This document shows, piece by piece, positions 5,360-20,700 of a DNA stretch of 64,000 nt. Source of the stretch: a phage. A model generated the notes under the pieces. It saw nothing but the letters and a program-made list of their open reading frames with translations. It had not been told where the DNA came from and ran no database searches. Where the stretch lies: the NCBI GenBank assembly GCA_012646185.1, contig GCA_012646185.1_4706.1. One strand, 5' to 3'. The position numbers were made by a program, and so were the translations under genes. Position 1 is the first letter of the stretch. Every line of letters begins with the position of its first letter.

Positions 5360-6169
5360 TTACCAATGATTAAAGCTGCCCGCTTTAACGACGTCACAGC
5401 GCAGATGGTTACGTAACTGATCCAGGAAGACAACCGGACTGTCGCCAGACAACATGGCCAGCGCGTGTTGGCCACCGGAACGAACAACAAGCTCATCAAC
5501 CATTGGTGCTGTAATCGGAAGATCATACGCATCCATGATTGCTTTGGCTTCCTGTTCTACGTCTTTCTGGAACCCTTCCATCGTCGGAGAGTCATATTTG
5601 GTTGCAAACTCGATCCCAGGCAAGTTAACGTAATCGTAAGTCATGACACGGGTCATAACACGACGGCGCTCACGTTGCCAGATCTGAGGATCGGTTAACG
5701 CGCGAACCGAAAAACACACGTTCACCAACGGCGTTTCAAAATCTTTACGTAATGGATCACCGTACGGCCCGCAAGGAATAACATCCCCCATCACCATCAC
5801 GACAGGACGACCACGACGATCACGTCCAGCTTCCTCTAGCCAAATCTTAGAAAAACAATGGCTTACCTTCGTTTCTTCGATTCGTAATGCTCGCTGCAAA
5901 AAGCTGGTTGCATCCTGACCGATCTCTGGTTTAGGGTGACCGTATTCACCTTTCAACGAACGATTGCGTGCGTTTGTTTGCAATAAGCTGTTTTCCAGGA
6001 ACAGCGGTTTCGAACGCTCAAGTTCGTAATATTCTTCGGTATTGTTAAAACAGTTAAATCCGCCTATAACACAGGTGTAGGCACCGTCAGCATTAGGACG
6101 GATAATACCTTTCTTATTCACACCAAGATAACTGGTGCAAACAAGATTACTAATTGGTGGTTGCATCAT
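5360..6169 (-). CDS. hypothetical protein
   Basis: 269-aa ORF. Confidence 0.55.
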   Translation of the reverse strand: MMQPPISNLVCTSYLGVNKKGIIRPNADGAYTCVIGGFNCFNNTEEYYELERSKPLFLENSLLQTNARNRSLKGEYGHPKPEIGQDATSFLQRALRIEETKVSHCFSKIWLEEAGRDRRGRPVVMVMGDVIPCGPYGDPLRKDFETPLVNVCFSVRALTDPQIWQRERRRVMTRVMTYDYVNLPGIEFATKYDSPTMEGFQKDVEQEAKAIMDAYDLPITAPMVDELVVRSGGQHALAMLSGDSPVVFLDQLRNHLRCDVVKAGSFNHW

Positions 6170-6248
6170 AACCCCTTTATAAGCAACTGAATGAAAAAAG
6201 CGTTACATTCCCGCTTTTACGTCAAGAAGGTGACGCGTAAGCGTTATA

Positions 6249-6980
6249 TCACCATTCATACGATCCGGCGCACTGATGCCCCAATAGTACCAACGCGTCG
6301 TCTTTGGCAGCCAGGTATTTTTCTAACGTTATCCGTGAAACAGACACATTAGAGAAATCCATCACACCTAAGCGATGATCGTAATGGTTAATTTGCATCC
6401 GGTAATAACCTTTCTTTACCACCAGAAACTCACCTTGACGCAACCATAGCGGAACGTTATCAACCTCCGCATGGATATAAAACACCGGACATTCTGTCGT
6501 AACGGAGTTTTCCTTCCCATCGCTATCTGTAATCTTCCCTTTGGGGACAGCCGCGATAAAACATTCTCCGATACGCTCGGTTTGGTACCCGTTGGGGTAA
6601 CGCGGATCGTGAAACAACCAATGTTCATCGCTAATATCCACATCGGATAATAACGTACGATGTGGACGTAAGGCGATATCAAACGGAACACGATAGATAA
6701 CGTACCCGCCTAACCAATGGGCTAAGTGACCGCCAGAAAAATACTGCTTGATTGCGGTACTGTAGCCGTATATACAACCCATCAAACTGCTGGACACACA
6801 GATCCTTGGAAACGACCCGTCTTCCATACGCAAGGTACGTTGAGGGATACGCGGCATCATCGTTTTCAGTTCGGTATCGGTGCTAATATGCAATAAACCG
6901 AAAGGAAGCGTTTTGCTCGGCACCCACGCACAACGTTCCATAATCGCTCTTGGGACAATAGTCTCGATAGACGATAACAT
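6249..6980 (-). CDS. hypothetical protein
   Basis: 243-aa ORF, tightly packed with neighbours. Confidence 0.55.
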   Translation of the reverse strand: MLSSIETIVPRAIMERCAWVPSKTLPFGLLHISTDTELKTMMPRIPQRTLRMEDGSFPRICVSSSLMGCIYGYSTAIKQYFSGGHLAHWLGGYVIYRVPFDIALRPHRTLLSDVDISDEHWLFHDPRYPNGYQTERIGECFIAAVPKGKITDSDGKENSVTTECPVFYIHAEVDNVPLWLRQGEFLVVKKGYYRMQINHYDHRLGVMDFSNVSVSRITLEKYLAAKDDALVLLGHQCAGSYEW

Positions 6981-6981
6981 A

Positions 6982-7692
6982 TCACCCCCTCAGAATCGCT
7001 TCTGTTTCGCTGATCGTATCCGCAGGATAAACCAAACTACTATCGATTGCGTTATTCACGTAACCACCCATTAAGTTGGTGATGGTGTTTGTACCGCTAT
7101 CGATAATGTTTCGTAATCCGATGTCGATGGCTTTTAAGGTGCTGCGTTCCTCATCCGAAAGCAAACGCCATGCTCGACGACGATCGTTGGGGTCACGTGT
7201 GGTGATAGACGCCAGAACAGAATAGATGCTGCTATCCGCATTCAATTTAACACCAGCCAATTTCGCTGACGTGTAGAGCAGCTGATATTTTTCTTTTTCG
7301 GTGTACCACCACGGCACTTTACCGAGCGTATAGATCTCGTTATACATCAGCCATGGGAAAGAGTTTCGCATCACGACATCGGTTGACACCAACACCGTGT
7401 CGCCGGGAAGAAACACAAATTCATAAAACGGCTGACCATCCATGGTAATCTCACGGATGTCAGATGGGTCGATATGGAGCTGGGTCAATGCGTGGCTGAC
7501 ACCATACTGACCATCAGGAAGAATAATCGGGCAGCACGCACAAACCCGGTTCTCACTCCCGATGATAGATAAACCCAATCCCTCGTAACGGACGGGTGTC
7601 AGAATCGAACACCCGCCACGAGTAACAACAGATTTATCTTCTTGTATGTCCCAGTCCGCAAGCACCGCAGCACCGTTGCGGACAAGCGCCAT
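6982..7692 (-). CDS. hypothetical protein
   Basis: 236-aa ORF abutting neighbours in an operon-like run. Confidence 0.55.
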   Translation of the reverse strand: MALVRNGAAVLADWDIQEDKSVVTRGGCSILTPVRYEGLGLSIIGSENRVCACCPIILPDGQYGVSHALTQLHIDPSDIREITMDGQPFYEFVFLPGDTVLVSTDVVMRNSFPWLMYNEIYTLGKVPWWYTEKEKYQLLYTSAKLAGVKLNADSSIYSVLASITTRDPNDRRRAWRLLSDEERSTLKAIDIGLRNIIDSGTNTITNLMGGYVNNAIDSSLVYPADTISETEAILRG

Positions 7693-9550: not shown

Positions 9551-12500
9551 TTATTTGGCGTCGTTAAAATAAATATCAACAGCTCGTTCCGTTGCGTAGA
9601 GGAGACCAAGATTCACAGTCCCAACCACTTCCGGTGAACCGATGATACGGTTAGCGATACTGGTGCCACTGAAGATAGCATCAAGGGTGTGCCCGTCTTC
9701 GGTTTTGTTCACACCATGACCCACGGAAGAGACAACGGATTTCGCTTGAGCTGCGAAGGTACCTTTATCACCCATCCCCGCACCAAGGTCGTAACGCATG
9801 AAAATACGGATAGCGATCTGGTTCTCGCCTAACGGATTACCGTCTATTCTCACGTTACTGTTATTGATACGCCCCGTAGTTGCTTCGTTGAGTTTCAGTT
9901 CCTTAACGCGTTTAGCTCGTGCTTTATCTGCCTCACCGACGAGCGCTGCCATGGTTTCACTCATATCCTCAATCTGAGCGCGGTACAGTACATCGATCTG
10001 TACAACTTCACCATGAACGTCAGCACGTGGGTTATACTGACTCATACGACGTAATGCTTCAACGGCTTCCTGACTCTCATCACTCAGATCGGTCGCAATC
10101 GGTTCTTCCAGTGTTGCAAGGATCGTTCGTGGTTCAACATGATCGCCGATTTTCACGAGACCACGAATGTTGAGATGGGCGTCAACGATGAGCGTACGGC
10201 TCTTAATCGATGGTGTTACGAGACGATCAGCAAGATTGTCGAAGATATACGAACTGTCCTCGTGAGTCTCTGGAATATCCAGAATACCGACAAGAGACAG
10301 AACACCTGCGCGCCAAACAACCTGACCTGGGTTCCACCAATCGCGTTTAAAATAAAGACGATGGAAAACCACCACATCCTGATCCTTAACGCGATCCCCG
10401 ACTTTATAATCGGTAATGAGATCGTGAGGATAATACTTACCTGGTCCTTTCCCGATTATCGTACCGAGCTGGAAAACCTCTTCCCCTAACTCTGGATCGT
10501 CGTATTGTATCGTAAGCGCAGTTTTGGTGACCTTCTTAACAACACCATCGCCTTGGGCAGCTGCTGCAAAGAGCTTACCAACACGATGCGCGATGACAGT
10601 CTCACCGCCTGTGCGCCATGGTTGTACATCGTAACCTTCAGCAGCAATCATGCGGTTGTGTTGGATCCCGACGAAGACCAGACGTTTTCCATCATCACGG
10701 TCTACAGCCGGAACAGCTAACGCTGACGTACTCATTACCGATGAGATGCCGTCTGTCTTTTCATCGAATGGTCGTGTTTCACCATACACCGACACGATAT
10801 TAGCATTAGGTGCAAGGTAAGCAGAGATACCCACATCCCCACTATCTTTCGTACCCTCTGACACAATACCAACATCGGACTTGTCGTATTCACGATCGCG
10901 TGCGCGTCGAAGCGATGTCTTTGAACGACCCCCGATACCGGTCATCGTTGCTTCTTCACCCTGCTTGATATCCAGCATCGGGTTGGTTTCATCGATCACG
11001 ATGGACGCGCTGTCGTCGAGAATTTGGTTCCAGACGCTTACCGGACTGATTGAGATTTTCTGACGATTTCCTTGACTGCTGTTCTCATTCTGACGAATAG
11101 CGCCAACCAGATCCTTATACACCAATTCAGCGAACTTATCGTACGTTTTAAAACGTTGATAGTTCACATCGTTGGTGTTAGGTGCCCAGTCATCCAGAAG
11201 CAGTTCAACAGCACGCAGTAACAACATGGCGAAATCGGTAGGTTCTCCCATGTTCTGTAGCAACGTACGGCTTACCGGATCAACGAAAAGACGCTCCATG
11301 AGTTCAAGTTCGCGTAAATGACGAACCTTAAGTCCGGCACCATCGACAACGTTAAAATAGATATCTCGATTGTCGAAAGCACCGCGAGCGTAACCGATGT
11401 AGTTACGGTACTCGTTAAATCCGCCCAGCAACAACGTCGTCATGCGATCGTCTTTACTGAAGATCAAACTTTCGTCATCAAAGCTCACCGCGAATTCATC
11501 GGGCGCTAGACCCATACGAGAACCGCGAGGTACCGTACGATAGTTCGCTTTAAGATGTTCTAATAACGGGGTAAGTCCACCCAGATAACTTAGAACAACA
11601 CCAACCGGAATACGTACACCCATGAATTCAAGATCGGCGGCTTCGATCGGCATCTTAGCCGCATTGATACCGAAGAAATCGGGGAACGTCCCTACAGGTG
11701 TTGGTGTTTGTCCTGACTGACAGATATAGAGCTGATTGCGTTTATCGATTGCTAAGAATTCACCCAGCGTGTTACGCGCAAACGTCAGGAGCCCTTCGGC
11801 TAACTGTTCGTTGAACCGATCTTCCCCGATGAACTCCGGCAATGTCTTTGTATCAAGACGTATATCCCAATCAGCAAATTGGATTTGGGTATAGTTGCGT
11901 GCAAGCACAGCGAAGTAATACGGGACTTTGACGGCCGGATCAAAGACGTTACCACGTTTTAACGTGGTTAAGGGCGAAGACTTATCGTAATACATCGCTG
12001 TAAGTTGGCGTGTTAGCCAACGACCGGCGTTATTAACGACACGCTCTGAACGTTTAACAAACACCTTACCGTAGGCGGTACTCAACGCAACTTCGGATGA
12101 TGATACCTTTCTAATAGGTTTATCAACACGTTGTTTACGCATCCGGTATTTGATGCCGTTAACAACATAAATGCCGTCCTTACGAACCTTCGGCAACATC
12201 ACCGGGAACGTGGTTGGGACACCGCCTACAGGAGCCAGTTTAATCGTGATGACTTGATAATCCCCCATCACGTCAACAACATCTTCAACTTTATATCCCG
12301 TGACAGGGTAACCTGCCTGTTGTACGGCAACAACAGCGGCTGCGATGTCCTTTTGCATCACGTGTTCAACGTAATGTTTATCCCACACCGCAAGCGTCGA
12401 TTTACATAGGCTCTTATCGACGATAACATCCGCTTCCGGCATAACCTTTGCTGGCGCTAATTTCGCGGCTTTTGGTTTAACTTCAACATACTCAGCAAGT

Positions 12501-13897
12501 GTTAATCCAGAACCGTCGGGTGCTTCGATTTCGTGAATGGCGTCAGCATTACGCATCGCTGCTTTATATTGGACGCCGCTTAACTGACCCGCATCAGCCA
12601 GATCGCTCGCGCGTACCAACACCGCATCCGATAACGACTGAATATATTCACCGTGTGTTTTCGGTAGCGTTGCTGCGTCAAAGACATCAACCTTTTCTTC
12701 TTCGGTATCGTCGGTAACGACTTCGAAGAGATCGTCGGTAATGTCCTGATCTTCATCGGGTTGGAAATCTGGTTGTACTTCTACCCCGGGTACTTCACGG
12801 ACATCTTCGAACGAGCGTTCTACAATGGCGTTCCACGCATCAGCGTCATCGTCTTCATCCGACCCGCCGACCAACTCCGCTTCTAACTCATCGGGATCAA
12901 GAACGGTAGCCAGATCCTCACCGTTAGGAAGCACGACGTCGCGATCATCATACTCCGCATCCGGGCTGTCTGCAAGAATATCTCGCTCTTGACGAAGAAC
13001 CTGTTCCTCTTCTTGTTTCTGTTCTTCTTCATTCGCACTCTGCGACCACAAACGTGTTACCGCCATCATCCAACGACGCTGGAAGGTTTCAAGTGTCGTT
13101 TTATCGAGTTCTTCCCCTTCCTTAACAAGCCCGGTACGCCATTCCTCCAGCAGGCCCAGATTCAGCGTAAAGAAGTACACACCGTCCGTAAATACAACGT
13201 TAAGCTTATCCAGCGTGGCTCTGTCTAACGAAGCCATCGTACTGTTCTCACGATCGGTTCCCAACCAGCGGAAGAAGTCAAAGAACGACAGCTCCTCCGG
13301 CGTAGCGAAATTCATGAGGTTGTTACGGGTCGGTGCCTGTTGCGTGGTACGCATCAACGAAATCTTCGGCAATGTTGACGGTATACGGAACAACAGAAAG
13401 TGTTGACGATCGCTTTGCTGTGCGATTTCGTTGGCTTTCGACCAAATTGTTTTACGTACGTTGAACCATTCATCATACCAACGGGTGAGCGTTGGACGAT
13501 AAATGTACATGTGGTTAAGATGCGCGTAGTTAGCCACGATCTGAGCGTTGATGTTTTTCTCCACCGTACTTAGATCAGTGACCAAACGAAAACGACGATG
13601 CGATGCACGGTAATCCAGTTTCGCACGCGGTAGCTGGAATCGCTGATCCCGTCGAGGTGCGCCTTGCTTGGTTGCAAGGTCATCCGCGAACGATATCCAA
13701 AGCTGGGCACTTTCTTTGCTCAGCATGTATTCGTTTTCTGGAGGACCTATCAATGATGGATCCGTTGCGGTGTAATGATAGACAGCATAACGCGGCAGCT
13801 GCAATAGCTGCACTAAACGTAATCTCGGTGACAATAGCTCTTGGTAGCGTCTGACACCGAACTGTCGGTAGTAATCAAGGTATTTAAGTTTTGCCAT
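9551..13897 (-). CDS. multisubunit RNA polymerase beta-prime-like subunit, C-terminal part
   Basis: 1448-aa ORF with ATG and GGAG RBS; contains a bridge-helix-like NNAGRWLTRQL (compare E. coli ANSGYLTRRL) and a possible trigger-loop-like TMTGIGG; follows the DFDGD exon. Highly diverged. Confidence 0.5.
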   Translation of the reverse strand: MAKLKYLDYYRQFGVRRYQELLSPRLRLVQLLQLPRYAVYHYTATDPSLIGPPENEYMLSKESAQLWISFADDLATKQGAPRRDQRFQLPRAKLDYRASHRRFRLVTDLSTVEKNINAQIVANYAHLNHMYIYRPTLTRWYDEWFNVRKTIWSKANEIAQQSDRQHFLLFRIPSTLPKISLMRTTQQAPTRNNLMNFATPEELSFFDFFRWLGTDRENSTMASLDRATLDKLNVVFTDGVYFFTLNLGLLEEWRTGLVKEGEELDKTTLETFQRRWMMAVTRLWSQSANEEEQKQEEEQVLRQERDILADSPDAEYDDRDVVLPNGEDLATVLDPDELEAELVGGSDEDDDADAWNAIVERSFEDVREVPGVEVQPDFQPDEDQDITDDLFEVVTDDTEEEKVDVFDAATLPKTHGEYIQSLSDAVLVRASDLADAGQLSGVQYKAAMRNADAIHEIEAPDGSGLTLAEYVEVKPKAAKLAPAKVMPEADVIVDKSLCKSTLAVWDKHYVEHVMQKDIAAAVVAVQQAGYPVTGYKVEDVVDVMGDYQVITIKLAPVGGVPTTFPVMLPKVRKDGIYVVNGIKYRMRKQRVDKPIRKVSSSEVALSTAYGKVFVKRSERVVNNAGRWLTRQLTAMYYDKSSPLTTLKRGNVFDPAVKVPYYFAVLARNYTQIQFADWDIRLDTKTLPEFIGEDRFNEQLAEGLLTFARNTLGEFLAIDKRNQLYICQSGQTPTPVGTFPDFFGINAAKMPIEAADLEFMGVRIPVGVVLSYLGGLTPLLEHLKANYRTVPRGSRMGLAPDEFAVSFDDESLIFSKDDRMTTLLLGGFNEYRNYIGYARGAFDNRDIYFNVVDGAGLKVRHLRELELMERLFVDPVSRTLLQNMGEPTDFAMLLLRAVELLLDDWAPNTNDVNYQRFKTYDKFAELVYKDLVGAIRQNENSSQGNRQKISISPVSVWNQILDDSASIVIDETNPMLDIKQGEEATMTGIGGRSKTSLRRARDREYDKSDVGIVSEGTKDSGDVGISAYLAPNANIVSVYGETRPFDEKTDGISSVMSTSALAVPAVDRDDGKRLVFVGIQHNRMIAAEGYDVQPWRTGGETVIAHRVGKLFAAAAQGDGVVKKVTKTALTIQYDDPELGEEVFQLGTIIGKGPGKYYPHDLITDYKVGDRVKDQDVVVFHRLYFKRDWWNPGQVVWRAGVLSLVGILDIPETHEDSSYIFDNLADRLVTPSIKSRTLIVDAHLNIRGLVKIGDHVEPRTILATLEEPIATDLSDESQEAVEALRRMSQYNPRADVHGEVVQIDVLYRAQIEDMSETMAALVGEADKARAKRVKELKLNEATTGRINNSNVRIDGNPLGENQIAIRIFMRYDLGAGMGDKGTFAAQAKSVVSSVGHGVNKTEDGHTLDAIFSGTSIANRIIGSPEVVGTVNLGLLYATERAVDIYFNDAK

Positions 13898-13900
13898 GGG

Positions 13901-14101
13901 TTAGGCTCCACGAGGTCCCGTTAAGTTGCGTAACAGGAACGCAACTGTATCGTAACCAATATCAATGTTGAATTTATTTTTACCGCTTACCCAGAAAGCA
14001 CGCTTCTTGTGTGAGTTGGTAATTTCGTCAATAGCTTCCATGGAATAAAGAACGTTAACCGAGACCGTATCACCGTCGAACCTTGTCTTCGCCTCAGGTC
14101 G
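13901..14101 (-). CDS. RNA polymerase beta-prime-like N-terminal subunit, exon 2 (catalytic DFDGD-type motif)
   Basis: Open frame encodes RPEAKTRFDGDTVSVNVLYSMEAIDEI...NIDIGYDTVAFLL, matching the beta-prime NADFDGDQMAVHVPLSLEA...QDVVLGLYY region; bounded upstream by in-frame UAG inside the intron core; stop UAA lies 2 codons before the ATG of the next gene. 5' boundary approximate. Confidence 0.6.
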   Translation of the reverse strand, partial: RPEAKTRFDGDTVSVNVLYSMEAIDEITNSHKKRAFWVSGKNKFNIDIGYDTVAFLLRNLTGPRGA

Positions 14102-16060
14102 CTACGCTGAGACCGCCTGCATGGATACGTACATCACAGGCTGCTTGCACTTTCATGCAAGAGGAGACTATATCAAACCGGCAGCGCAACCTGCTACGGT
14201 AACCTACACTTCGAAGACGCTCGTCCTCTACAGGGTGGTAAATCCCTTAGTCGTTGAACCTGCGTTGTTTCACATTCTTGTTTGTAAGAATGTCGTATTA
14301 CTACGCAACAACCAGGCTGCTGATTGCCCATTGTTTCGCACCTTAGCACCGCTTACGCGGCTTTTCTTTCAGCCTAAGCCTCTTACGGAGGTAGTGCATC
14401 TCAACTGTTGTTTCTGCCTTTCGGCACCTCATGGGTCGTTGAGCTTTAGGGGTTCCCAGCATTTCGTAGGTTTTTCAAGCACTCCCTTTCGGGAATACCG
14501 GACTCATTATTAGCTTATTTATTCAAGTATCTGAAATCCCACTTATCTTTACGTCGTTTATCGCACTTGATGTCAGGATGATTAACACGATGCCTAATAG
14601 TTGTTGCCGATAGCTGGCTGAGATTCTCAGCAGATCGTGCGCCAAGAACAACGAGTTTTGTGTCGTCTGGACGCGTAACTTCTACTGCCCGATAATGCTT
14701 ACGTAACACATCACGCCAATATTCACGACGTTCTGGTTCAGCATACTCAAGCATGTAACCGTTAACATCTACTAAACCGTAGCTTTCGTTTAATCGAGAG
14801 GTAGCGGCTGGTTTACTAATACCGATTGCTTTAGCCGCATCGACCACGGTTTTATACGGGGTCTCATTACCGTCTCTATCTACAACCACAATGAAATCTG
14901 GACGTGAATCGAGTAGCTGCTGTCTGCGTTCGACGGCTTGTTGATGAAGCACCATGTTAACGTGTTCGAACCCGTAACCTTCTGGACCGTGCCACCCTGG
15001 ATTGTTATTCGCTCGATAAAGTACCGTCGCAGATTTCACTCCAGTCTGACGTGACGCCTCGTTTGCACTATGAACAACCGTGGTAGAGCCGTCAGGGTGA
15101 TATATCCGTATCTGGTTCATTATACCGGAACCAATGAAGTTACCATCAGCTGATTTAATATCCGGCCATGGTTGAGGATCATCTTTGAATTTAACCACCC
15201 AGCGGTTATTAAACAGTTTGACTTTTCGAACATGTTTGCCCATTGTCGTATCCGTAACACCTGCGACTACTGATGCCTGTGTGATACTCAGGTACTCAGT
15301 AACGGTATCGTTCCATGTATCCCAAAGCAGAACCGGTTTATTGTCGTCGCGTAAACCGTATTCGATGGCGTGTAGAACGTTACGACTTCTGGTCGCCCAT
15401 TCAAGATTATCGAGAGAGTAATTCCATTTGTCGGCATCGAGATGATTAACGTCCAACTTATCGACATTAGCCGGATATTCCCGCCACGCCAACATCAAGC
15501 AGCGATGCAGAACCTTAGTTCTCGTTACATCCCGACAATCATGACGTAGACTAATGAATACGTAATTATCCTTTTTCGGATACGATCTACATTCCTGACC
15601 GTCTTTGCGGCGAATAACTCGTCCTTTCTCATTTATCAGATAACGGGTGTGTCCAGGAATGACACGATAACCAGGGTACTTAGCGATTTCGTAAGCAGGC
15701 TCGAACCGATAGGATAAATTATCAACATCCCAGTTAGATTCGTCACCATCAACAAACATCGCTTTGACGTACTTCTGTGTTTCAATATCAACCAGGATGT
15801 TTTTGTGTGCGATACAAATCAATGCTGGGATATTGAATTCACGACCGGCTAAGATAACCATGTCGCCATTTCTCGGTATCACGACGTGGGTATCACGATA
15901 CCGTAAATTTCCATAGCCGTCTATTTCAATCCAGCTTAGAAACGGAATGGATATAAACTCTTTTTCAGATACTCGCCATTTAAACATCTTAATACCTATT
16001 TAATACTAAACATCATATTAATAGGTTTAAAAGTTAAAAATGACAGAAAATGGCTAAATT
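14102..16060 (-). mobile_element. group I self-splicing intron carrying an HNH homing endonuclease gene
   Basis: Canonical P, Q, R, S core elements in correct order on the minus strand: P ~14366-14381 (GGCUGAAA), Q ~14312-14326 (AAUCAGCAGCC), R ~14244-14259 (GUUCAACGACUAAGGG), S ~14163-14176 (UUGAUAUAGUC); P4 and P7 pairings are complementary. 5' splice site not resolved. Confidence 0.7.
14515..15987 (-). CDS. HNH homing endonuclease (intron-encoded)
   Basis: 490-aa ORF with HNH-type motif DVNHLDADKWNYSLDNLEWATRSRNVLHA, a NUMOD4-like N-terminal segment and three helix-turn-helix-like repeats in the C-terminal half. Confidence 0.8.
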   Translation of the reverse strand: MFKWRVSEKEFISIPFLSWIEIDGYGNLRYRDTHVVIPRNGDMVILAGREFNIPALICIAHKNILVDIETQKYVKAMFVDGDESNWDVDNLSYRFEPAYEIAKYPGYRVIPGHTRYLINEKGRVIRRKDGQECRSYPKKDNYVFISLRHDCRDVTRTKVLHRCLMLAWREYPANVDKLDVNHLDADKWNYSLDNLEWATRSRNVLHAIEYGLRDDNKPVLLWDTWNDTVTEYLSITQASVVAGVTDTTMGKHVRKVKLFNNRWVVKFKDDPQPWPDIKSADGNFIGSGIMNQIRIYHPDGSTTVVHSANEASRQTGVKSATVLYRANNNPGWHGPEGYGFEHVNMVLHQQAVERRQQLLDSRPDFIVVVDRDGNETPYKTVVDAAKAIGISKPAATSRLNESYGLVDVNGYMLEYAEPERREYWRDVLRKHYRAVEVTRPDDTKLVVLGARSAENLSQLSATTIRHRVNHPDIKCDKRRKDKWDFRYLNK

Positions 16061-17529
16061 GAATCACCGCCTAAACCGGCGAGGTACGGGGCAGGAACAA
16101 TAGTAGTTTCTACGAATGATGCATTAGGTAACCAGTCGGGGTATTCCCATGCGATAAATCGTTCATCCGTTATTGGTTCCCAGTTACTATCCAGTTCGGT
16201 TTTCGGTTTTGCCGCAACGGTTGTACGTGCGTAACAGGTTAACGGGATAACGGATTGCATACCGGATACCGGATAACGTGTTACCATCGCAGCCAGGTTA
16301 TTCCAGTACTTATAACCAGCGATATAAATAAGCTCGGTGTAAGTAATGGGGTGAACATCCGCACCAGGCTTATTCAACATCTCCGGAGGTAATTCACTCA
16401 TACCACGGAATAACCGAAACGAATCATTGTTCACATAGACGAGGCAAAGATATCGTCCATTGACCATGATAGGCTCGTTACGCACGCCAGGATCGCTTAA
16501 GGTGTTCAGTAAACGTTCTATTCCGTCCCAGGTTGTAAAGTCATCGATGGTGTCTGGATCAAGCGTGACACGTTCACGTTCCATCGTTTCGGTATCAATA
16601 AGTTCAACTTCTGTAACGTCACGAACAAATATTTCCTGCAAAATACCGGTACGTAACGCATGTTGCGTTACTGGGAGAGCAGCTTTACTCATCTGGTATA
16701 ACCCTAACTGAACTGCGGTACAGGAAGGCTGGTTAGGCGACCCTAATACCTCCGTTGTGGGGTTAATTGCCGAAATAACGTTACGGGTTGAGTTCCAAAC
16801 GCGACGTGAACCAAACTTCCCTTGGAAGATCCCTTTCTTACCTTGGAACATATCCAACAACAAAGCGTAGATATCGTTAAACGTTCTCTGTAAGCTCCAG
16901 CGTTGGCCGTCGTAAACGGGATCGGAATAATCTTTTAATCCATCAGGGACGGTGTTAGAAATTGCAAGGAAACGACGATACAACTCCGTGATTTCTTGCT
17001 CGCTTTCATACCCACCTTCTTTTACTTCTATTTCACGTAAACCCGCAGGTAAAACCAGTAGATGACGAGTCATCGCTTTGAACATGTTCTCTTCGACGAC
17101 TTTAATTCGTAGCTCTCGTTGAGCTGAACCCGTTGAAACGAACTTAATATCAGCGACGTGTTGTGCAAAGAACCCGTACCCTGTCTGTCCTGTTAACGCA
17201 TCAGACGCAACGAAGTCGCGTTGTTCAGGATCCCAACGCGCGTACGCCTTCCCCGACATGATATCGCCATAGAGGTGTTTTAGTCGAATGAGACGATCGT
17301 AGATGACAGGATGTAGGATTTCAACCTTGCATTCAATCACCGCAAATCGACGGTCTCGATCTTCACTACCCGCACTACCAAAGATGGTGTATGAATAGAA
17401 ACCGTCATCGTGGAAATTACCGGTGCTTGGATCACGAATGCTCATGCTCGTGATCTTGGGGAGAAAACGTAACTGCTGTTTATCGAGGTGTAAAATACTA
17501 ATATTAAACGGCTCTCTGACTTTAGCCAT
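16054..17529 (-). CDS. RNA polymerase beta-prime-like N-terminal subunit, exon 1
   Basis: Start ATG at 17529 with AGAGGAG RBS (ORF-track start 17571 is an upstream extension). N-terminus FNISILHL...DGFYSYTIFGS aligns with beta-prime FDAIKIAL...DGLFCARIFGP; KGIFQGKFGSRRVWNSTRNVISAINP aligns with the [26 protein letters not shown] region. Frame stops at 16054 inside the presumed intron, so the true 3' end of exon 1 is uncertain. Confidence 0.6.
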   Translation of the reverse strand: MAKVREPFNISILHLDKQQLRFLPKITSMSIRDPSTGNFHDDGFYSYTIFGSAGSEDRDRRFAVIECKVEILHPVIYDRLIRLKHLYGDIMSGKAYARWDPEQRDFVASDALTGQTGYGFFAQHVADIKFVSTGSAQRELRIKVVEENMFKAMTRHLLVLPAGLREIEVKEGGYESEQEITELYRRFLAISNTVPDGLKDYSDPVYDGQRWSLQRTFNDIYALLLDMFQGKKGIFQGKFGSRRVWNSTRNVISAINPTTEVLGSPNQPSCTAVQLGLYQMSKAALPVTQHALRTGILQEIFVRDVTEVELIDTETMERERVTLDPDTIDDFTTWDGIERLLNTLSDPGVRNEPIMVNGRYLCLVYVNNDSFRLFRGMSELPPEMLNKPGADVHPITYTELIYIAGYKYWNNLAAMVTRYPVSGMQSVIPLTCYARTTVAAKPKTELDSNWEPITDERFIAWEYPDWLPNASFVETTIVPAPYLAGLGGDSI

Positions 17530-17774
17530 GGAGACACTCCTCTTTACCACCACCGGCTGCGGCGGTATCATCTGAACACACGAGAGACGTAATGGGTGAT
17601 GGCGTCACCCATCGCTTCCTTGCTTGAGGCGAGGAAGTTACTAGGTTACGTACCTGCCTGATTTTATCAGGTGGGCGATGTGTGAAGTTATGCTTCAACA
17701 TTATCAATGCCGAAGGTAAACTTCGTGCATCACGTTCCAACGTAACATGGGAACGTATCGAACTGGAGGTATAC

Positions 17775-20700
17775 ATGGTAGATAAAACCCGTGTTGAGGG
17801 TGATGATAATTGGGACAACTGGGATGAAGACTTCTCCCTGGATCTCGATTTTAACGAACCCAAAGACGATCGTAAACCGATAACACGCTTTGCGATAGGA
17901 GCGGTTAAAGGTGCTGCTGAAGATCTTACTTCCTACGAAAGAATGAGGGAGATCGCCAGAAACGCATTGCCTAAGGGCTACAGCGACGGTATGGATCTTA
18001 TCGATTCCGCCGTCGGATCCACGAAGGAACTATACAATGAAGCCGTTCGTGACGTTCTTCCTAAGGTCCAAAGCTCAAAACGGTTAGCCGCACAACTGAC
18101 CAAGAAATACCGTGCGAGCATGCCCGATTTCTCGAAGAAAATTCTTGAGCAATGGGAGCAAGAAGCCAAGGAAGAAGACGAACGTAAAAAAGCTGAAGAA
18201 ACCCTTCGTCAACGCATGGCGAGCGCAGGGGACGATGAGATCGCCCGCAAGGTTGCCGAGGCATTAGGCGAATCAGCAAACCAAAGCGCGGATCAGTTCG
18301 CTGAACAGCAAGCGAAAGAGAGTATCCGTGACGATATCGCTGACAAACGGTACGCTGTAACCAACAAACAAATGAGTGCGATGCAAGAAGGCGTCGCCAA
18401 GATGGTTGGTTTCAACAATGAATTCGCTGCGCGCTACATGCGTAAAAGCCTGGAACTGAAATATCGTTCCTTAGCGATTCAGCGTGCAAGTTTCGACCAG
18501 CATAAAAAGTTAGCCGAAGTCTATATCGGTTTATTACAAAACATCCAGAAGAATACGGCTTTACCTGATGCGGCTAAAGCGAAGATGTCGGAAGAATTCC
18601 GTCGTAGTGCATACCAACGTTTCTTTGGTAATGCGTTAGATGCGATGGGTTCTTTCGAGAACCGTTTCTTTGCCGATGTTAAGAAGAACCTCGCCACCAA
18701 CGCATTAGGTGCTTTAAAAGGCGTCGTGTCTGGCGCAAACGATGCGTTATACGGTTTAAACGAAGCACGTGACTCGATGTCCATGATGGACGGGATGGGG
18801 TCAGAAGGCGATATTAAGGAAATGCAAGGAAAGATGTTGGGTCAACTTATCGGCTCAACTGTCGTACCATGGATGGCTGATAAAGGCAGGATGGCGTTAC
18901 GCGATTTAGCAAAACGTCACCCCAATGCTAAATTCGCTAGCGCGTTAAAAGCCGTGGATCAAGGTGGTGAGGCTGCCGCTTACACGACGCGTAATCTCGG
19001 TAAACTGCTCCAGGAAGATATTCGTAAAAACGAATTCAATCTTAGCGATCCGTTTTACAAGCAATTGTTACGCGGTGCAGGGCGTTGGGCTTTCAACATG
19101 GATAGCGGACGTAACTTCCGCGTGATGAACGACACCGCTGAAACACTGGCGGAGCAAACGTCTTTCGACGGTTTAACCTACCGCAGCATCAACGAAGTTA
19201 TTCCAGGCTTTCTTGCACGCATTCTGAAAAGCAGTGAAGGTATCCGCACCGGAAACAGCGATCCTGATTACGAGGTCTATGACGGCATCAGCGGGCAATT
19301 CGTGTCTCAGCGCACGCGTGAACAAAGCGTCAATGACACGCTGTTTAACAAACGTACATTTGGTTATTACGCCAGCCGTTTCAACGAGGTTATCTCGGTC
19401 ATCGATCCCGATAAACAATTATCGGAAAAAGCCAGGAAGGCACTGGCTAAACAGTTGGCACGAGATAGCGACGCGAACATCGCATTCGACCCGGCTCGTT
19501 TTACGGATGAAAGCAACTTCGATCGTAGCATTGACCGTGACGCTATTAAGGAACTTTCCACGTACTTTCGTGACCGTTACGGTATTCGTGATGATGTCAA
19601 CGATAAGGGCGAACGTCATCAGGTCATTGGAAACCGCGGGCAATATTACACGGAACGTAACCGAGCCGACCTTCGCTACGGTAATTTGAAATCGTTACAA
19701 CCGGATATCCAGCGTAACCTTAACCTACTGAAACGTACTGGTGACGTCCAATATCTGGAACGTATTGGTATTGTAACGAGAAATAGCGACGGAAGTTACT
19801 CGGTTAATCACGATAGGTATTTCTCTGAAATCGATCGGTACATCGACCGACCGGAGTACGCTGAACGTAGTGATGTTAATACGCGATTAACCGCTCAGGA
19901 AACAAGAGCGCTGGCGTTGGGTTATCGTGACGCAAAACCATCAGTTGATGACGTCCAAAATGCGGGTCTGCCGAACATCGATCGTAAGGCTGTTGGAACA
20001 GTAACCGTTGATGAAAACATCGGCTACGATAAATGGTGGAACGACACAGGTGTTATCACCACATCGCTTGAAGAACAGAATCGAGCATGGCAAGAGCTTT
20101 ATCTCGAAGCGTTATCTGAAGCATCCGAACAACGTGTTGAGATGCTTGCGTTGCTGAAAGCCATTTCTGAGAAAGACTGGTCTAATAACGTTTCGCTGGA
20201 TGGTGAAGACGTGCCTGAAGGCGCAGCACCTATTTCATTTATTGATCGTGCCAAACAAAAACTTGGCGGACGCAACCTCTTTAAAGGTGGCCGTAATCTC
20301 CTCTGGAAAGGAATTAAAAATACCGCACGTTTAGGTGTTAAAGGCGCGCGCTGGGGTGCAGAACGCACGTTGGGTAGTTTGGTAAATTCCGGCCGACGCA
20401 TTATCAACTTCAACCGCTTCGTGTTCGGTGCGTTATCCAAGGTCGATCAGGTTCCGTTTGACATTTACGTTAAAGGGGAATCCCAACCACGCATACTGGC
20501 TGCCAAACTTCGTCAGGGGTTATACTTCGACGAGGCGACAGGAAAAGCCGTCAAACGGATGAAGGATATCAAAGGCCCACTCGTTGATGCAGATGGAAAC
20601 ATCGTAATCAGCAACGAGGATATCGAGAAAGGGTTGGTCACTCGCGCCGGTCGTGCCTTTGAGAATTCAGGACTTAAAGCATGGGCGCGTGAAGGTCTTA

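Follow-up and report, generated by a model that had tools for sequence, protein, structure and literature searches.

How can the catalytic loop of an RNA polymerase be expressed from DNA that offers no start codon for it? The question arises at one locus of the window, by which we mean the whole 64,000-nucleotide stretch of phage DNA analyzed here. On the minus strand, positions 14101..13901 translate to RPEAKTRFDGDTVSVNVLYSMEAIDEITNSHKKRAFWVSGKNKFNIDIGYDTVAFLLRNLTGPRGA followed by a stop, and this short segment includes the most conserved motif of the polymerase. An earlier note on this DNA read the segment as an exon that open reading frame (ORF) calling had missed. We examine this reading, its boundaries, and its competitors. 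The segment from 14080 to 13901 is very probably the 3' exon of a virion RNA polymerase beta'-N gene that is split by a mobile group I intron.

The window phage is a relative of the jumbo phage Goslar (94% DNA identity over 14.5 kb). Goslar is a nucleus-forming chimallivirus of E. coli (genus Goslarvirus). The features of the locus are collected in Table 1, in the order in which they occur on the minus strand; a slash marks a splice site or exon junction throughout.

Table 1. Features of the split polymerase locus in the window.
Feature	Coordinates	Strand	Description
505-aa ORF	17571..16054	minus	First in minus-strand order
Exon 1, virion RNA polymerase beta'-N	16063..17571	minus	Ends ...APYLAGLGGD; last codon GAT 16065..16063
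Group I intron	14081..16062	minus	1982 nt; follows U16063, ends with G14081 (omega G); lies between D and FDGD
P1 5' strand	16054..16065	minus	GAU/UCA plus extension UUAG; from duplex prediction and covariation
Intron leader	15988..16062	minus	75 nt; hairpin at about 16022..15992, kept in Goslar, just before the endonuclease start codon
Gap between the 505-aa and 490-aa ORFs		minus	66 nt
490-aa ORF, HNH homing endonuclease gene (HEG)	14515..15987	minus	Follows the 505-aa ORF; intron-encoded, in the P1 loop
Splice-site-like GGGAU/UUCAG	14531..14540	minus	In the last codons of the HEG; could pair with the P1 guide sequence; shares the frame of exon 2
Ribozyme core P2-P9 (Rfam group I match)	14144..14530	minus	Between the 490-aa ORF and the FDGD segment; RF00028, 56.3 bits against a gathering score of 50, E 7e-13
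Internal guide sequence (P1 3' strand)	14500..14513	minus	CUAA-UAA-UGAGUC-C; directly after the endonuclease stop codon
P9.1 and P9.2 hairpins and terminal G	14081..14143	minus	Includes the 21 nt (14101..14081) earlier called exon
Exon 2	13901..14080	minus	59 codons, FDGDTVSVNVLYSMEAIDEITNSHKKRAFWVSGKNKFNIDIGYDTVAFLLRNLTGPRGA, plus TAA; encodes FDGDTVSVN...GA and stop
GGAG Shine-Dalgarno (SD) sequence	13906..13909	minus	Codons 57-58 of exon 2, 8 nt upstream of ATG; identical in all alleles
1448-aa ORF	9551..13897	minus	Last, after the FDGD segment

A coding exon that lacks a start codon

The frame that encodes FDGD is closed by an in-frame TAG at 14104..14102, directly upstream of 14101, and between this codon and FDGD it offers no ATG, GTG, or TTG. 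The earlier note was right that the segment has no start codon of its own. Its statement that the segment is absent from the ORF track holds for the part that bears the motif; an ATG at 14041, behind FDGD, opens a 46-aa sub-ORF (14041..13901) that lacks the motif and is listed at a 30-aa cut-off. The exon is also shorter than was proposed. It starts at 14080 rather than at 14101, because alignment with an intronless allele (L008, below) leaves a gap of exactly 16062..14081; the intervening 14101..14081 is the 3' end of the intron. The DFDGD motif is thus shared between two exons: exon 2 supplies FDGD, and the first Asp is the last codon of exon 1.

Removal of 16062..14081 restores the frame GGD/FDGD, and the resulting gene matches the intronless allele and 286 homologues along its whole course. 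Splicing would join the last bases of exon 1, ...GGCGGTGAT, to the start of exon 2, TTCGACGGTGAT..., at 16063/14080, so that the product would measure 562 aa when counted from the longest ORF, or about 548 aa otherwise. The predicted ligated junction of the window reads ...TTAGGCGGTGAT/TTCGACGGTGATACG, and its Goslar equivalent ...CTTGGCGGTGAT/TTCGAC.... At its 5' end, ATG 17571 merely yields the longest ORF; homologues and the Logan gene call (491 aa) begin at Met15, and the true start is likely ATG 17529, which has the SD sequence AAGAGGAG upstream. The unspliced 505-aa ORF ends ...IVPAPYLAGLGGD-SI and a stop.

The predicted spliced product shows an end-to-end match with PHROG 2986 (residues 17-557 against profile positions 3-538 of 539, E 2e-179) and aligns in one piece with proteins from 286 phage genomes or records. 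Against five intron-free homologues it aligns without gaps, and D503, D505, G506, D507, and T508 are invariant (alignment A1). In the PDB, the profile built from this beta'-N family (A1) reaches bacterial beta' chains, including that of E. coli (E 8e-6), as well as the beta'-N chain of AR9 (E 6e-12). A second profile (A4), made from the last ~140 residues, aligns ...LGGDFDGDTVS... with the NADFDGDQMAV loop of beta', archaeal A', and Rpb1, and its match in E. coli beta' covers 447-514; these matches are individually weak (E 0.07-0.3), and nearly all of the 60 listed are largest subunits of RNA polymerases, aligned at the same loop.

Family profiles were needed because Pfam and single-sequence PDB searches missed the polymerase similarity. 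Pfam returned no polymerase domain at E <= 1 for the spliced protein, for exon 1, or for the 1448-aa protein. The earlier note had proposed a search with polymerase domain models and would have taken a lack of similarity as refutation. With Pfam such a search comes back empty, and with family-specific profiles it reaches beta'; for so divergent a protein, the Pfam-type test would have misled.

Exon 2 is under strict purifying selection: all variable sites among nine alleles (17/17) are synonymous. The exon 1 protein is 99.8% identical to that of Goslar despite 94% identity of the DNA. Taken with the profile matches, the pattern of substitution bears out the central claim of the earlier note, that a coding segment without a start carries the polymerase motif, and supports a real, unannotated coding exon with catalytic metal-binding residues of the beta' active site. 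Beta'-N is presumably packaged in the virion and transcribes early genes, as judged from orthology and shared gene order with phiKZ gp180 and PhiPA3 gp212.

The group I intron, its endonuclease gene, and its alleles

The intron consists of a 75-nt leader, a 490-aa HEG gene that occupies the P1 loop, and a ribozyme core of roughly 430 nt, in which a consensus fold recovers P3 to P9. The leader holds a conserved motif, AAACCTATTAATATGA, of which the window has no second copy. In blastn searches of phage genomes, the core matched only Goslar, apart from short fragments in other jumbo-phage polymerase genes. A scan of 13500..17800 for sigma-70 promoters and terminators gave no enrichment over shuffled sequences.

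The distant 5' splice site would be recognized through P1, the helix formed by the end of exon 1, the first intron bases, and the guide sequence. In the window, GAU/UCA pairs with UGAGUC, UUAG (16057..16054) pairs with CUAA, and U16063 at position -1 forms a U-G wobble with G14503; the UAG of the extension (16056..16054) doubles as the stop of the unspliced ORF. In Goslar both partners are changed yet matched (GAU/C with GGUC, GGAAA with UUUCU), and in alleles without the HEG GAU/AA pairs with UUGUC. The pair at intron position +1 is accordingly U-A in the window, C-G in Goslar, and A-U in the HEG-free alleles. Such covariation across about 1.55 kb supports a P1 helix with the HEG gene in its loop. 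Against the splicing model, the exon side of P1 is short, at 3 bp (GAU) in both the window and Goslar, and the helix has to bridge this distance. In the core helices P2-P9, 0/126 predicted pairs covary; the five cores compared, at >90% identity, are too alike for compensatory changes to show, and their length differences lie in hairpin loops. Rfam itself draws a P1 that would put the 5' splice site behind U14521 (...YLN/). We discard this placement because the helix contains two mismatches and is not preserved in Goslar, and because no sensible motif results.

The 490-aa ORF matches Pfam HNH_3 over residues 176-204 (NHLDADKWNYSLDNLEW; E 1.7e-8, 34.4 bits against a cut-off of 24.8), PHROG 59 (E 1e-26), and also PHROG 959. 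Its Pfam matches to NUMOD1 (E 0.029) and I-HmuI_NUMOD-like (E 0.12) fall below the cut-off. It is 28% identical to PhiPA3 gp210 (E 7e-16) and 32% identical to phiKZ gp179, and we predict that it acts as a homing endonuclease.

Scans of IMG/VR and of metagenomes yielded seven further Goslar-like genomes. Two of them, L008 (IMG/VR) and L090, are intronless. L008 has an uninterrupted gene for a 100% identical 562-aa protein, and the gap that separates it from the window is the complete 1982 nt. Its site reads GGTGGGGAC/TTTGATGGT; that of the window with the intron removed is GGCGGTGAT/TTCGACGGT. Three others (L010, L091, and L092) have the same ribozyme at the same site without the HEG, in introns of 462-546 nt, and the L010 core scores 64.9 bits against RF00028. 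In L093 and L094 the intron is present, and the 5' parts lie outside the recovered loci. GAT, and with it U at -1, ends exon 1 in all five intron-bearing alleles with a readable exon-1 end, and exon 2 begins with TTC in 7/7 intron-bearing alleles; both intronless alleles have GAC/TTT. The -1 U therefore tracks the presence of the intron. Between L008 and Goslar, five synonymous differences cluster within 8 nt of the insertion site. Together with the coexistence of intron-bearing, HEG-free, and intronless alleles, this is indirect evidence that the HEG may cut or nick the intronless allele near the site. A distant metagenomic chimallivirus, L078, has the same layout and a strong P1 (GGUGAU with GUCACC); its intron sits four codons later, at DFDGD/T.

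The adjacent beta gene offers a second site for an intron, equivalent in position to PhiPA3 gp210, and the distribution of that intron among the Goslar-like genomes is the reverse. At this site, the beta gene is uninterrupted in the window and interrupted in L010 and L008.

In the mechanism that we propose, the terminal GAU of exon 1 (16065..16063), together with the bases that open the intron, would pair across about 1.55 kb with the guide at 14513..14500, and guanosine-initiated self-splicing would join ...GLGGD to FDGDTVSV.... The spliced beta'-N (about 548 aa, or 562 from the longest ORF) would carry all three catalytic Asp. Unspliced RNA would give a product that ends in GGDSI; since this product has only one of the three catalytic Asp, splicing would be needed for an active enzyme.

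Alternative readings of the locus

The HEG itself contains, in its last codons, a sequence that resembles a 5' splice site, and the 490-aa ORF might accordingly be taken for the 5' exon, with GGGAU/UUC (after 14536) leading to ...KDKWD/FDGDTV as a main or alternative product and to the junction ...AAGTGGGAT/TTCGACGG. The site ends in U and keeps the frame of exon 2; it can form 6 bp with the same guide (-6.5 kcal/mol in the window, -6.8 in Goslar), lies only about 30 nt from it, and is identical in sequence in the two phages. The 490-aa ORF, however, is an HNH endonuclease without similarity to beta' (Pfam, PHROG), and the intronless allele places the entire HEG inside the inserted element. 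Where the guide differs between the two phages, the differences are compensatory for the distant exon-1 site; this site also forms the stronger duplex (-9.4 kcal/mol in the window, -7.9 in Goslar), and the HEG-free alleles keep the same core with splicing predicted from exon 1. We consider such a product very unlikely, and HNH identity and the boundaries of the intronless allele rule out the 490-aa ORF as exon 1 (KWD/FDGD). A join of HEG and exon 2 might occur as a minor cryptic product; GGGAU/UUCAG at 14540..14531 is either a relic or a cryptic site. The 3' end of the HEG gene shows only a marginal match to the 5' end of the HEG-free intron (CUUGAAUAAAUAA against CUUGAA-AAAUAA), and 77/2000 shuffles score as well. 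It is highly doubtful that GGGAU/UUC works as a second 5' splice site, where the ribozyme would choose between the exon 1-exon 2 and HEG-exon 2 joins. If it did, the HEG-exon 2 join would yield a fusion protein or serve as a decoy that holds the guide sequence, and endonuclease expression would be tied to polymerase maturation in a phage that keeps transcription and translation physically apart.

Two further readings dispense with splicing. RNA polymerase subunits of jumbo phages are naturally split into several polypeptides (PMC7598289), and exon 2 might be a separate small peptide, the non-covalent partner of a truncated 505-aa product. In favor of this, the equivalent phiKZ intron gave no evidence of splicing in a long-read transcriptome study under its conditions (PMC10914365), which also counts against the intron model. 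Such a peptide would need a start, however, and the first one in the frame is ATG 14041, past the motif; moreover, the locus retains an entire ribozyme core that passes the Rfam threshold, P1 covaries between alleles, and both the -1 U and the terminal G are conserved. We regard genes in pieces as extremely improbable. Least probable of all is a decayed locus, in which the intron has lost splicing and beta'-N is a pseudogene in the window phage. The short exon side of P1 would fit decay, but the exclusively synonymous changes in exon 2 and the near identity of the exon 1 protein to that of Goslar would not, and Goslar, whose locus is arranged in the same way, is a viable isolate. Transposon insertions in phiKZ orf179 were not recovered, which the authors ascribe to polar loss of the essential orf180, and clean orf179 deletions are viable (PMC12676376). 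An intron-split beta'-N gene is the reading that we retain.

The adjoining beta gene, known relatives, and implications

The 1448-aa gene downstream had been taken for a second beta' fragment. It is not, because its family profile matches RpoB chains and its family is linked to phiKZ gp178; judged by these matches, it is a beta-like virion RNA polymerase subunit of the phiKZ gp178 family. The protein falls in PHROG 3148, and a profile built from it together with four homologues (A2) finds, among polymerases, only RpoB (beta) chains, with Thermus beta matched over 533-655 (E 4e-6); a PDB search with the 1448-aa sequence alone gave nothing relevant. Annotation notes in the PhiPA3 record tie the gene family to PhiPA3 gp211/209 and phiKZ gp178, and Birkholz 2024 (PMC11620839) treats phiKZ gp178 as the beta subunit.

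The two genes adjoin closely. The stop of exon 2 (TAA 13903..13901) is followed by CCC and by ATG 13897, so that one codon, not two as first described, separates stop and start, and the GGAG ribosome-binding site lies within the last codons of exon 2, as the earlier note had seen. This tight junction of stop, SD, and ATG is real and conserved across the family: of 56 related loci, most have -4 to +15 nt between beta'-N and beta. Individual gaps measure 2 nt in KTN4, 11 nt in Ea35-70, 5 nt in PhiPA3, and 10 nt in SA002, and Proteus phage 10 has a 4-nt overlap. Translational coupling of the two genes is plausible from this layout; since the exon 2 stop lies 3 nt before the ATG and the SD sequence inside exon 2, ribosomes ending spliced beta'-N would be delivered to the beta start. 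A 6-bp hairpin (UCGUGG/CCAUGG, the slash here separating its two strands) over part of the SD and the AUG is weak, and its fold z-score of -1.4 is not significant. Spacing of this size is ordinary in phage operons.

The closest known parallel is phiKZ. According to later papers that cite the work, a group I intron and a HEG at gp180/gp179 were predicted by Mesyanzhinov 2002 (cited in PMC10914365, PMC11512511, PMC12676376). The phiKZ proteins gp72 and gp179 are intron-encoded HEGs, and orf179 can be deleted (PMC12676376, PMC11512511); introns in jumbo-phage polymerase genes have been described as frequent (10.1101/2020.12.14.422802). PHIKZ180 is annotated with 490 aa and ends ...LGAD and a stop; it is followed by the HEG PHIKZ179 and a group I core (Rfam, 92 bits), and a segment encoding FDGDTVSFN... 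runs up to 2 nt before gp178. The phiKZ and window loci share the insertion point D/FDGD, the order (exon 1, leader, HEG, ribozyme core, an exon 2 of 59-61 codons, and the beta gene within a few nt), HEGs that are 32% identical, and an exon 2 that is unannotated in the public record. Each has an intronless sister genome: L008 for the window, and for phiKZ the same-species phage KTN4, which is intronless at the D/FDGD site. They differ in host and genus (the window phage belongs to E. coli and Goslarvirus), in intron cores without similarity detectable by blastn, and in the HEG-free intron copies of the Goslar-like clade. The HEGs differ as well: that of the window, with 490 aa, is longer than the 357-aa phiKZ protein and includes additional helix-turn-helix-like repeats and an N-terminal region of about 100 aa.

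A comparable case is PhiPA3 (gp211/gp210/gp209; Birkholz et al. 2024, PMC11620839), where the group I intron, its HNH HEG located 5' of the core, likewise cuts a virion RNA polymerase gene at conserved catalytic Asp residues, and the HEGs are homologous (28%, E 7e-16). The PhiPA3 intron lies in the beta gene, after DRDD, whereas that of the window lies in beta'-N. Nicking and a role in phage-phage competition have been demonstrated for gp210 (PMC11620839).

In Goslar (NC_048170 / MK327938), the ncRNA 'Intron_gpI' (HOV27_gs002) is the same element, with a core that is 94% and a HEG protein that is 86% identical; the window intron lacks a 49-nt peripheral insertion, and the P1 partner sequences differ. 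The public Goslar record marks only 429 nt as intron, calls the HEG hypothetical, lets the beta'-N CDS end in intron read-through, and has no CDS for exon 2. In a literature search we found no paper on the Goslar intron or its exon 2, and the paper that describes Goslar does not mention an intron.

The position of the HEG in the P1 loop is established only for chimallivirus examples (the window, phiKZ, PhiPA3, and L078). Phage group I introns with HNH nicking HEGs also occur in SPO1 and SP82 (I-HmuI, I-HmuII) and in Bastille (I-BasI). The RNA polymerase introns of AR9 are a further example (PMC12908238, 10.1101/2020.12.14.422802). These introns share with that of the window an essential nucleic-acid enzyme gene, an active-site motif, and an HNH/NUMOD-type HEG; the host genes and phage families differ.

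Because the same arrangement has been predicted for phiKZ since 2002, the window case corrects annotation and adds no new biology. This correction, which is its main value, has practical consequences. Public beta'-N entries for Goslar and phiKZ either break off at the first catalytic Asp or continue into the intron; structural, proteomic, and phylogenetic work based on such truncated entries is therefore missing two of the three residues that bind Mg and about 60 residues of the C-terminus. The tryptic peptide across GLGGD/FDGDTV is 57 residues long, which may explain why standard proteomics has not reported the junction. Existing Goslar RNA-seq or proteomic data allow a direct check of the exact junction (16063/14080, GGD/FDGD), and the Goslar-like clade offers a way to revisit the reported lack of detectable splicing in phiKZ. 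Another asset is the series of alleles in an E. coli phage: the clade holds all three states of the homing cycle at one site, namely empty, intron only, and intron with endonuclease. It offers a convenient E. coli system in which to ask whether intron endonucleases serve as weapons between co-infecting nucleus-forming phages.

Predicted product of the beta'-N gene

The exon-1 open reading frame (ORF) of the virion RNA polymerase beta'-N gene, taken at its longest, begins with the ATG at window position 17571. The ATG at 17529 has a strong SD sequence, AAGAGGAG, with a 7-nt spacer, and agrees both with the start of all homologues and with an independent call of a 491-aa gene. In view of this support, the predicted mature spliced protein is probably 548 aa in length. 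Cleavage with trypsin would leave the exon junction inside a single peptide of 57 residues (FIAWEY...GLGGD/FDGD...ITNSHK, residues 472-528 of the spliced protein; the slash marks the junction), one that standard trypsin proteomics would probably miss.

Variation within the intron and its endonuclease gene

Between the window and Goslar, the exons and flanking parts share 94-99% DNA identity; the centre of the HNH endonuclease gene carried by the group I intron (window 15700..15200, around the HNH domain) shares only 51-77%, with many amino-acid changes. This pattern suggests recombination, or else fast evolution of the catalytic or recognition region. Over its final ~33 nt, the endonuclease ORF does not differ between the two phages. 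This stretch includes a splice-site-like sequence (see the table) similar to GGGGAU/AAGUCCUUGAAAAAUAAAG, the boundary of exon 1 and intron in the endonuclease-free alleles; the likeness is marginal by local alignment alone and is equalled by 77 of 2000 shuffles. The sequence can pair with the guide sequence of the intron (the 3' strand of P1) and shares the reading frame of exon 2. It is either a cryptic site or the remnant of an earlier 5' splice site. At the other end of the gene, the predicted hairpin in the leader is also present in Goslar, with its stem shifted; it may regulate translation of the endonuclease or mark a transcript end.

The intron also varies in length. A 49-nt segment in a peripheral hairpin after P3' is present in Goslar and in the endonuclease-free introns L010 and L092, and is absent from the window (between 14192 and 14191) and from a third such intron, L091. 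L092 carries an additional 36-nt insertion in a hairpin of the P5 region. Both changes are confined to loops.

Features within the window and at related loci
Feature	Sequence	Coordinates	Strand	Remarks
Leader hairpin, CCUAUUAAUA...UAUUAAAUAGG	Window	16022..15992	Minus	Directly 5' of endonuclease start codon
Splice-site-like sequence, GGGAU/UUCAGAUACUUGAAUAAAUAA	Window	14540..14515	Minus	Within final ~33 nt of endonuclease ORF
phiKZ intron	L096 (phiKZ NC_004629)	5764..7205		1442 nt; gp179 within
phiKZ exon 2	L096 (phiKZ NC_004629)	7206..7391		61 codons; begins FDGDTVSFN
Group I intron with HNH endonuclease	L078 (IMG/VR UViG_3300007803_000004)	5444..6737		After DFDGD, before T
Second insertion, beta gene	L010	9410..9872		Directly after DRDD
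Second insertion, beta gene	L008	After 8902		Directly after DRDD
Equivalent beta-gene position	Window	10688/10687		

Insertion sites in RNA polymerase genes

Synonymous changes that distinguish the intronless Goslar-like alleles (L008 and L090) from intron-bearing ones cluster exactly at the beta'-N insertion site (window 16071..16063 and 14080..14072). L008 differs from Goslar by 5 synonymous changes within 8 nt at this site, against a gene-wide divergence of ~5.6%. The cluster could reflect divergence of the endonuclease site, co-conversion, or a requirement of P1.

The adjacent beta gene provides a second site, filled in two Goslar-like relatives. L010 has a group I intron here (54 bits); the insert of L008 is unlike it in sequence. 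The gp210 intron of PhiPA3 occupies this same site. The beta gene is uninterrupted there in the window and Goslar; thus, the beta'-N and beta insertion sites are mosaic among these genomes.

Beyond this group, other jumbo phages have short intron-core matches (75-83% identity over 50-75 nt) within or next to their RNA polymerase genes; among them are SPN3US-like Salmonella and E. coli phages, Proteus phage 7, and Vibrio phages vB_pir03 and C-ZP2022. The matches hint at related introns in these phages. In phiKZ, the RefSeq record annotates PHIKZ180 with the end ...LGAD* and omits exon 2; the intron and exon 2 are plainly present in the sequence. The intron of L078, a distant chimallivirus, scores 45.5 bits, under the gathering score, and its insertion point is four codons away from that of the window. 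In L084 (5465 onward), the gene also stops short at the motif, and a 327-aa ORF follows. Judging from these sequences, insertions appear to have targeted the DFDGD motif repeatedly.
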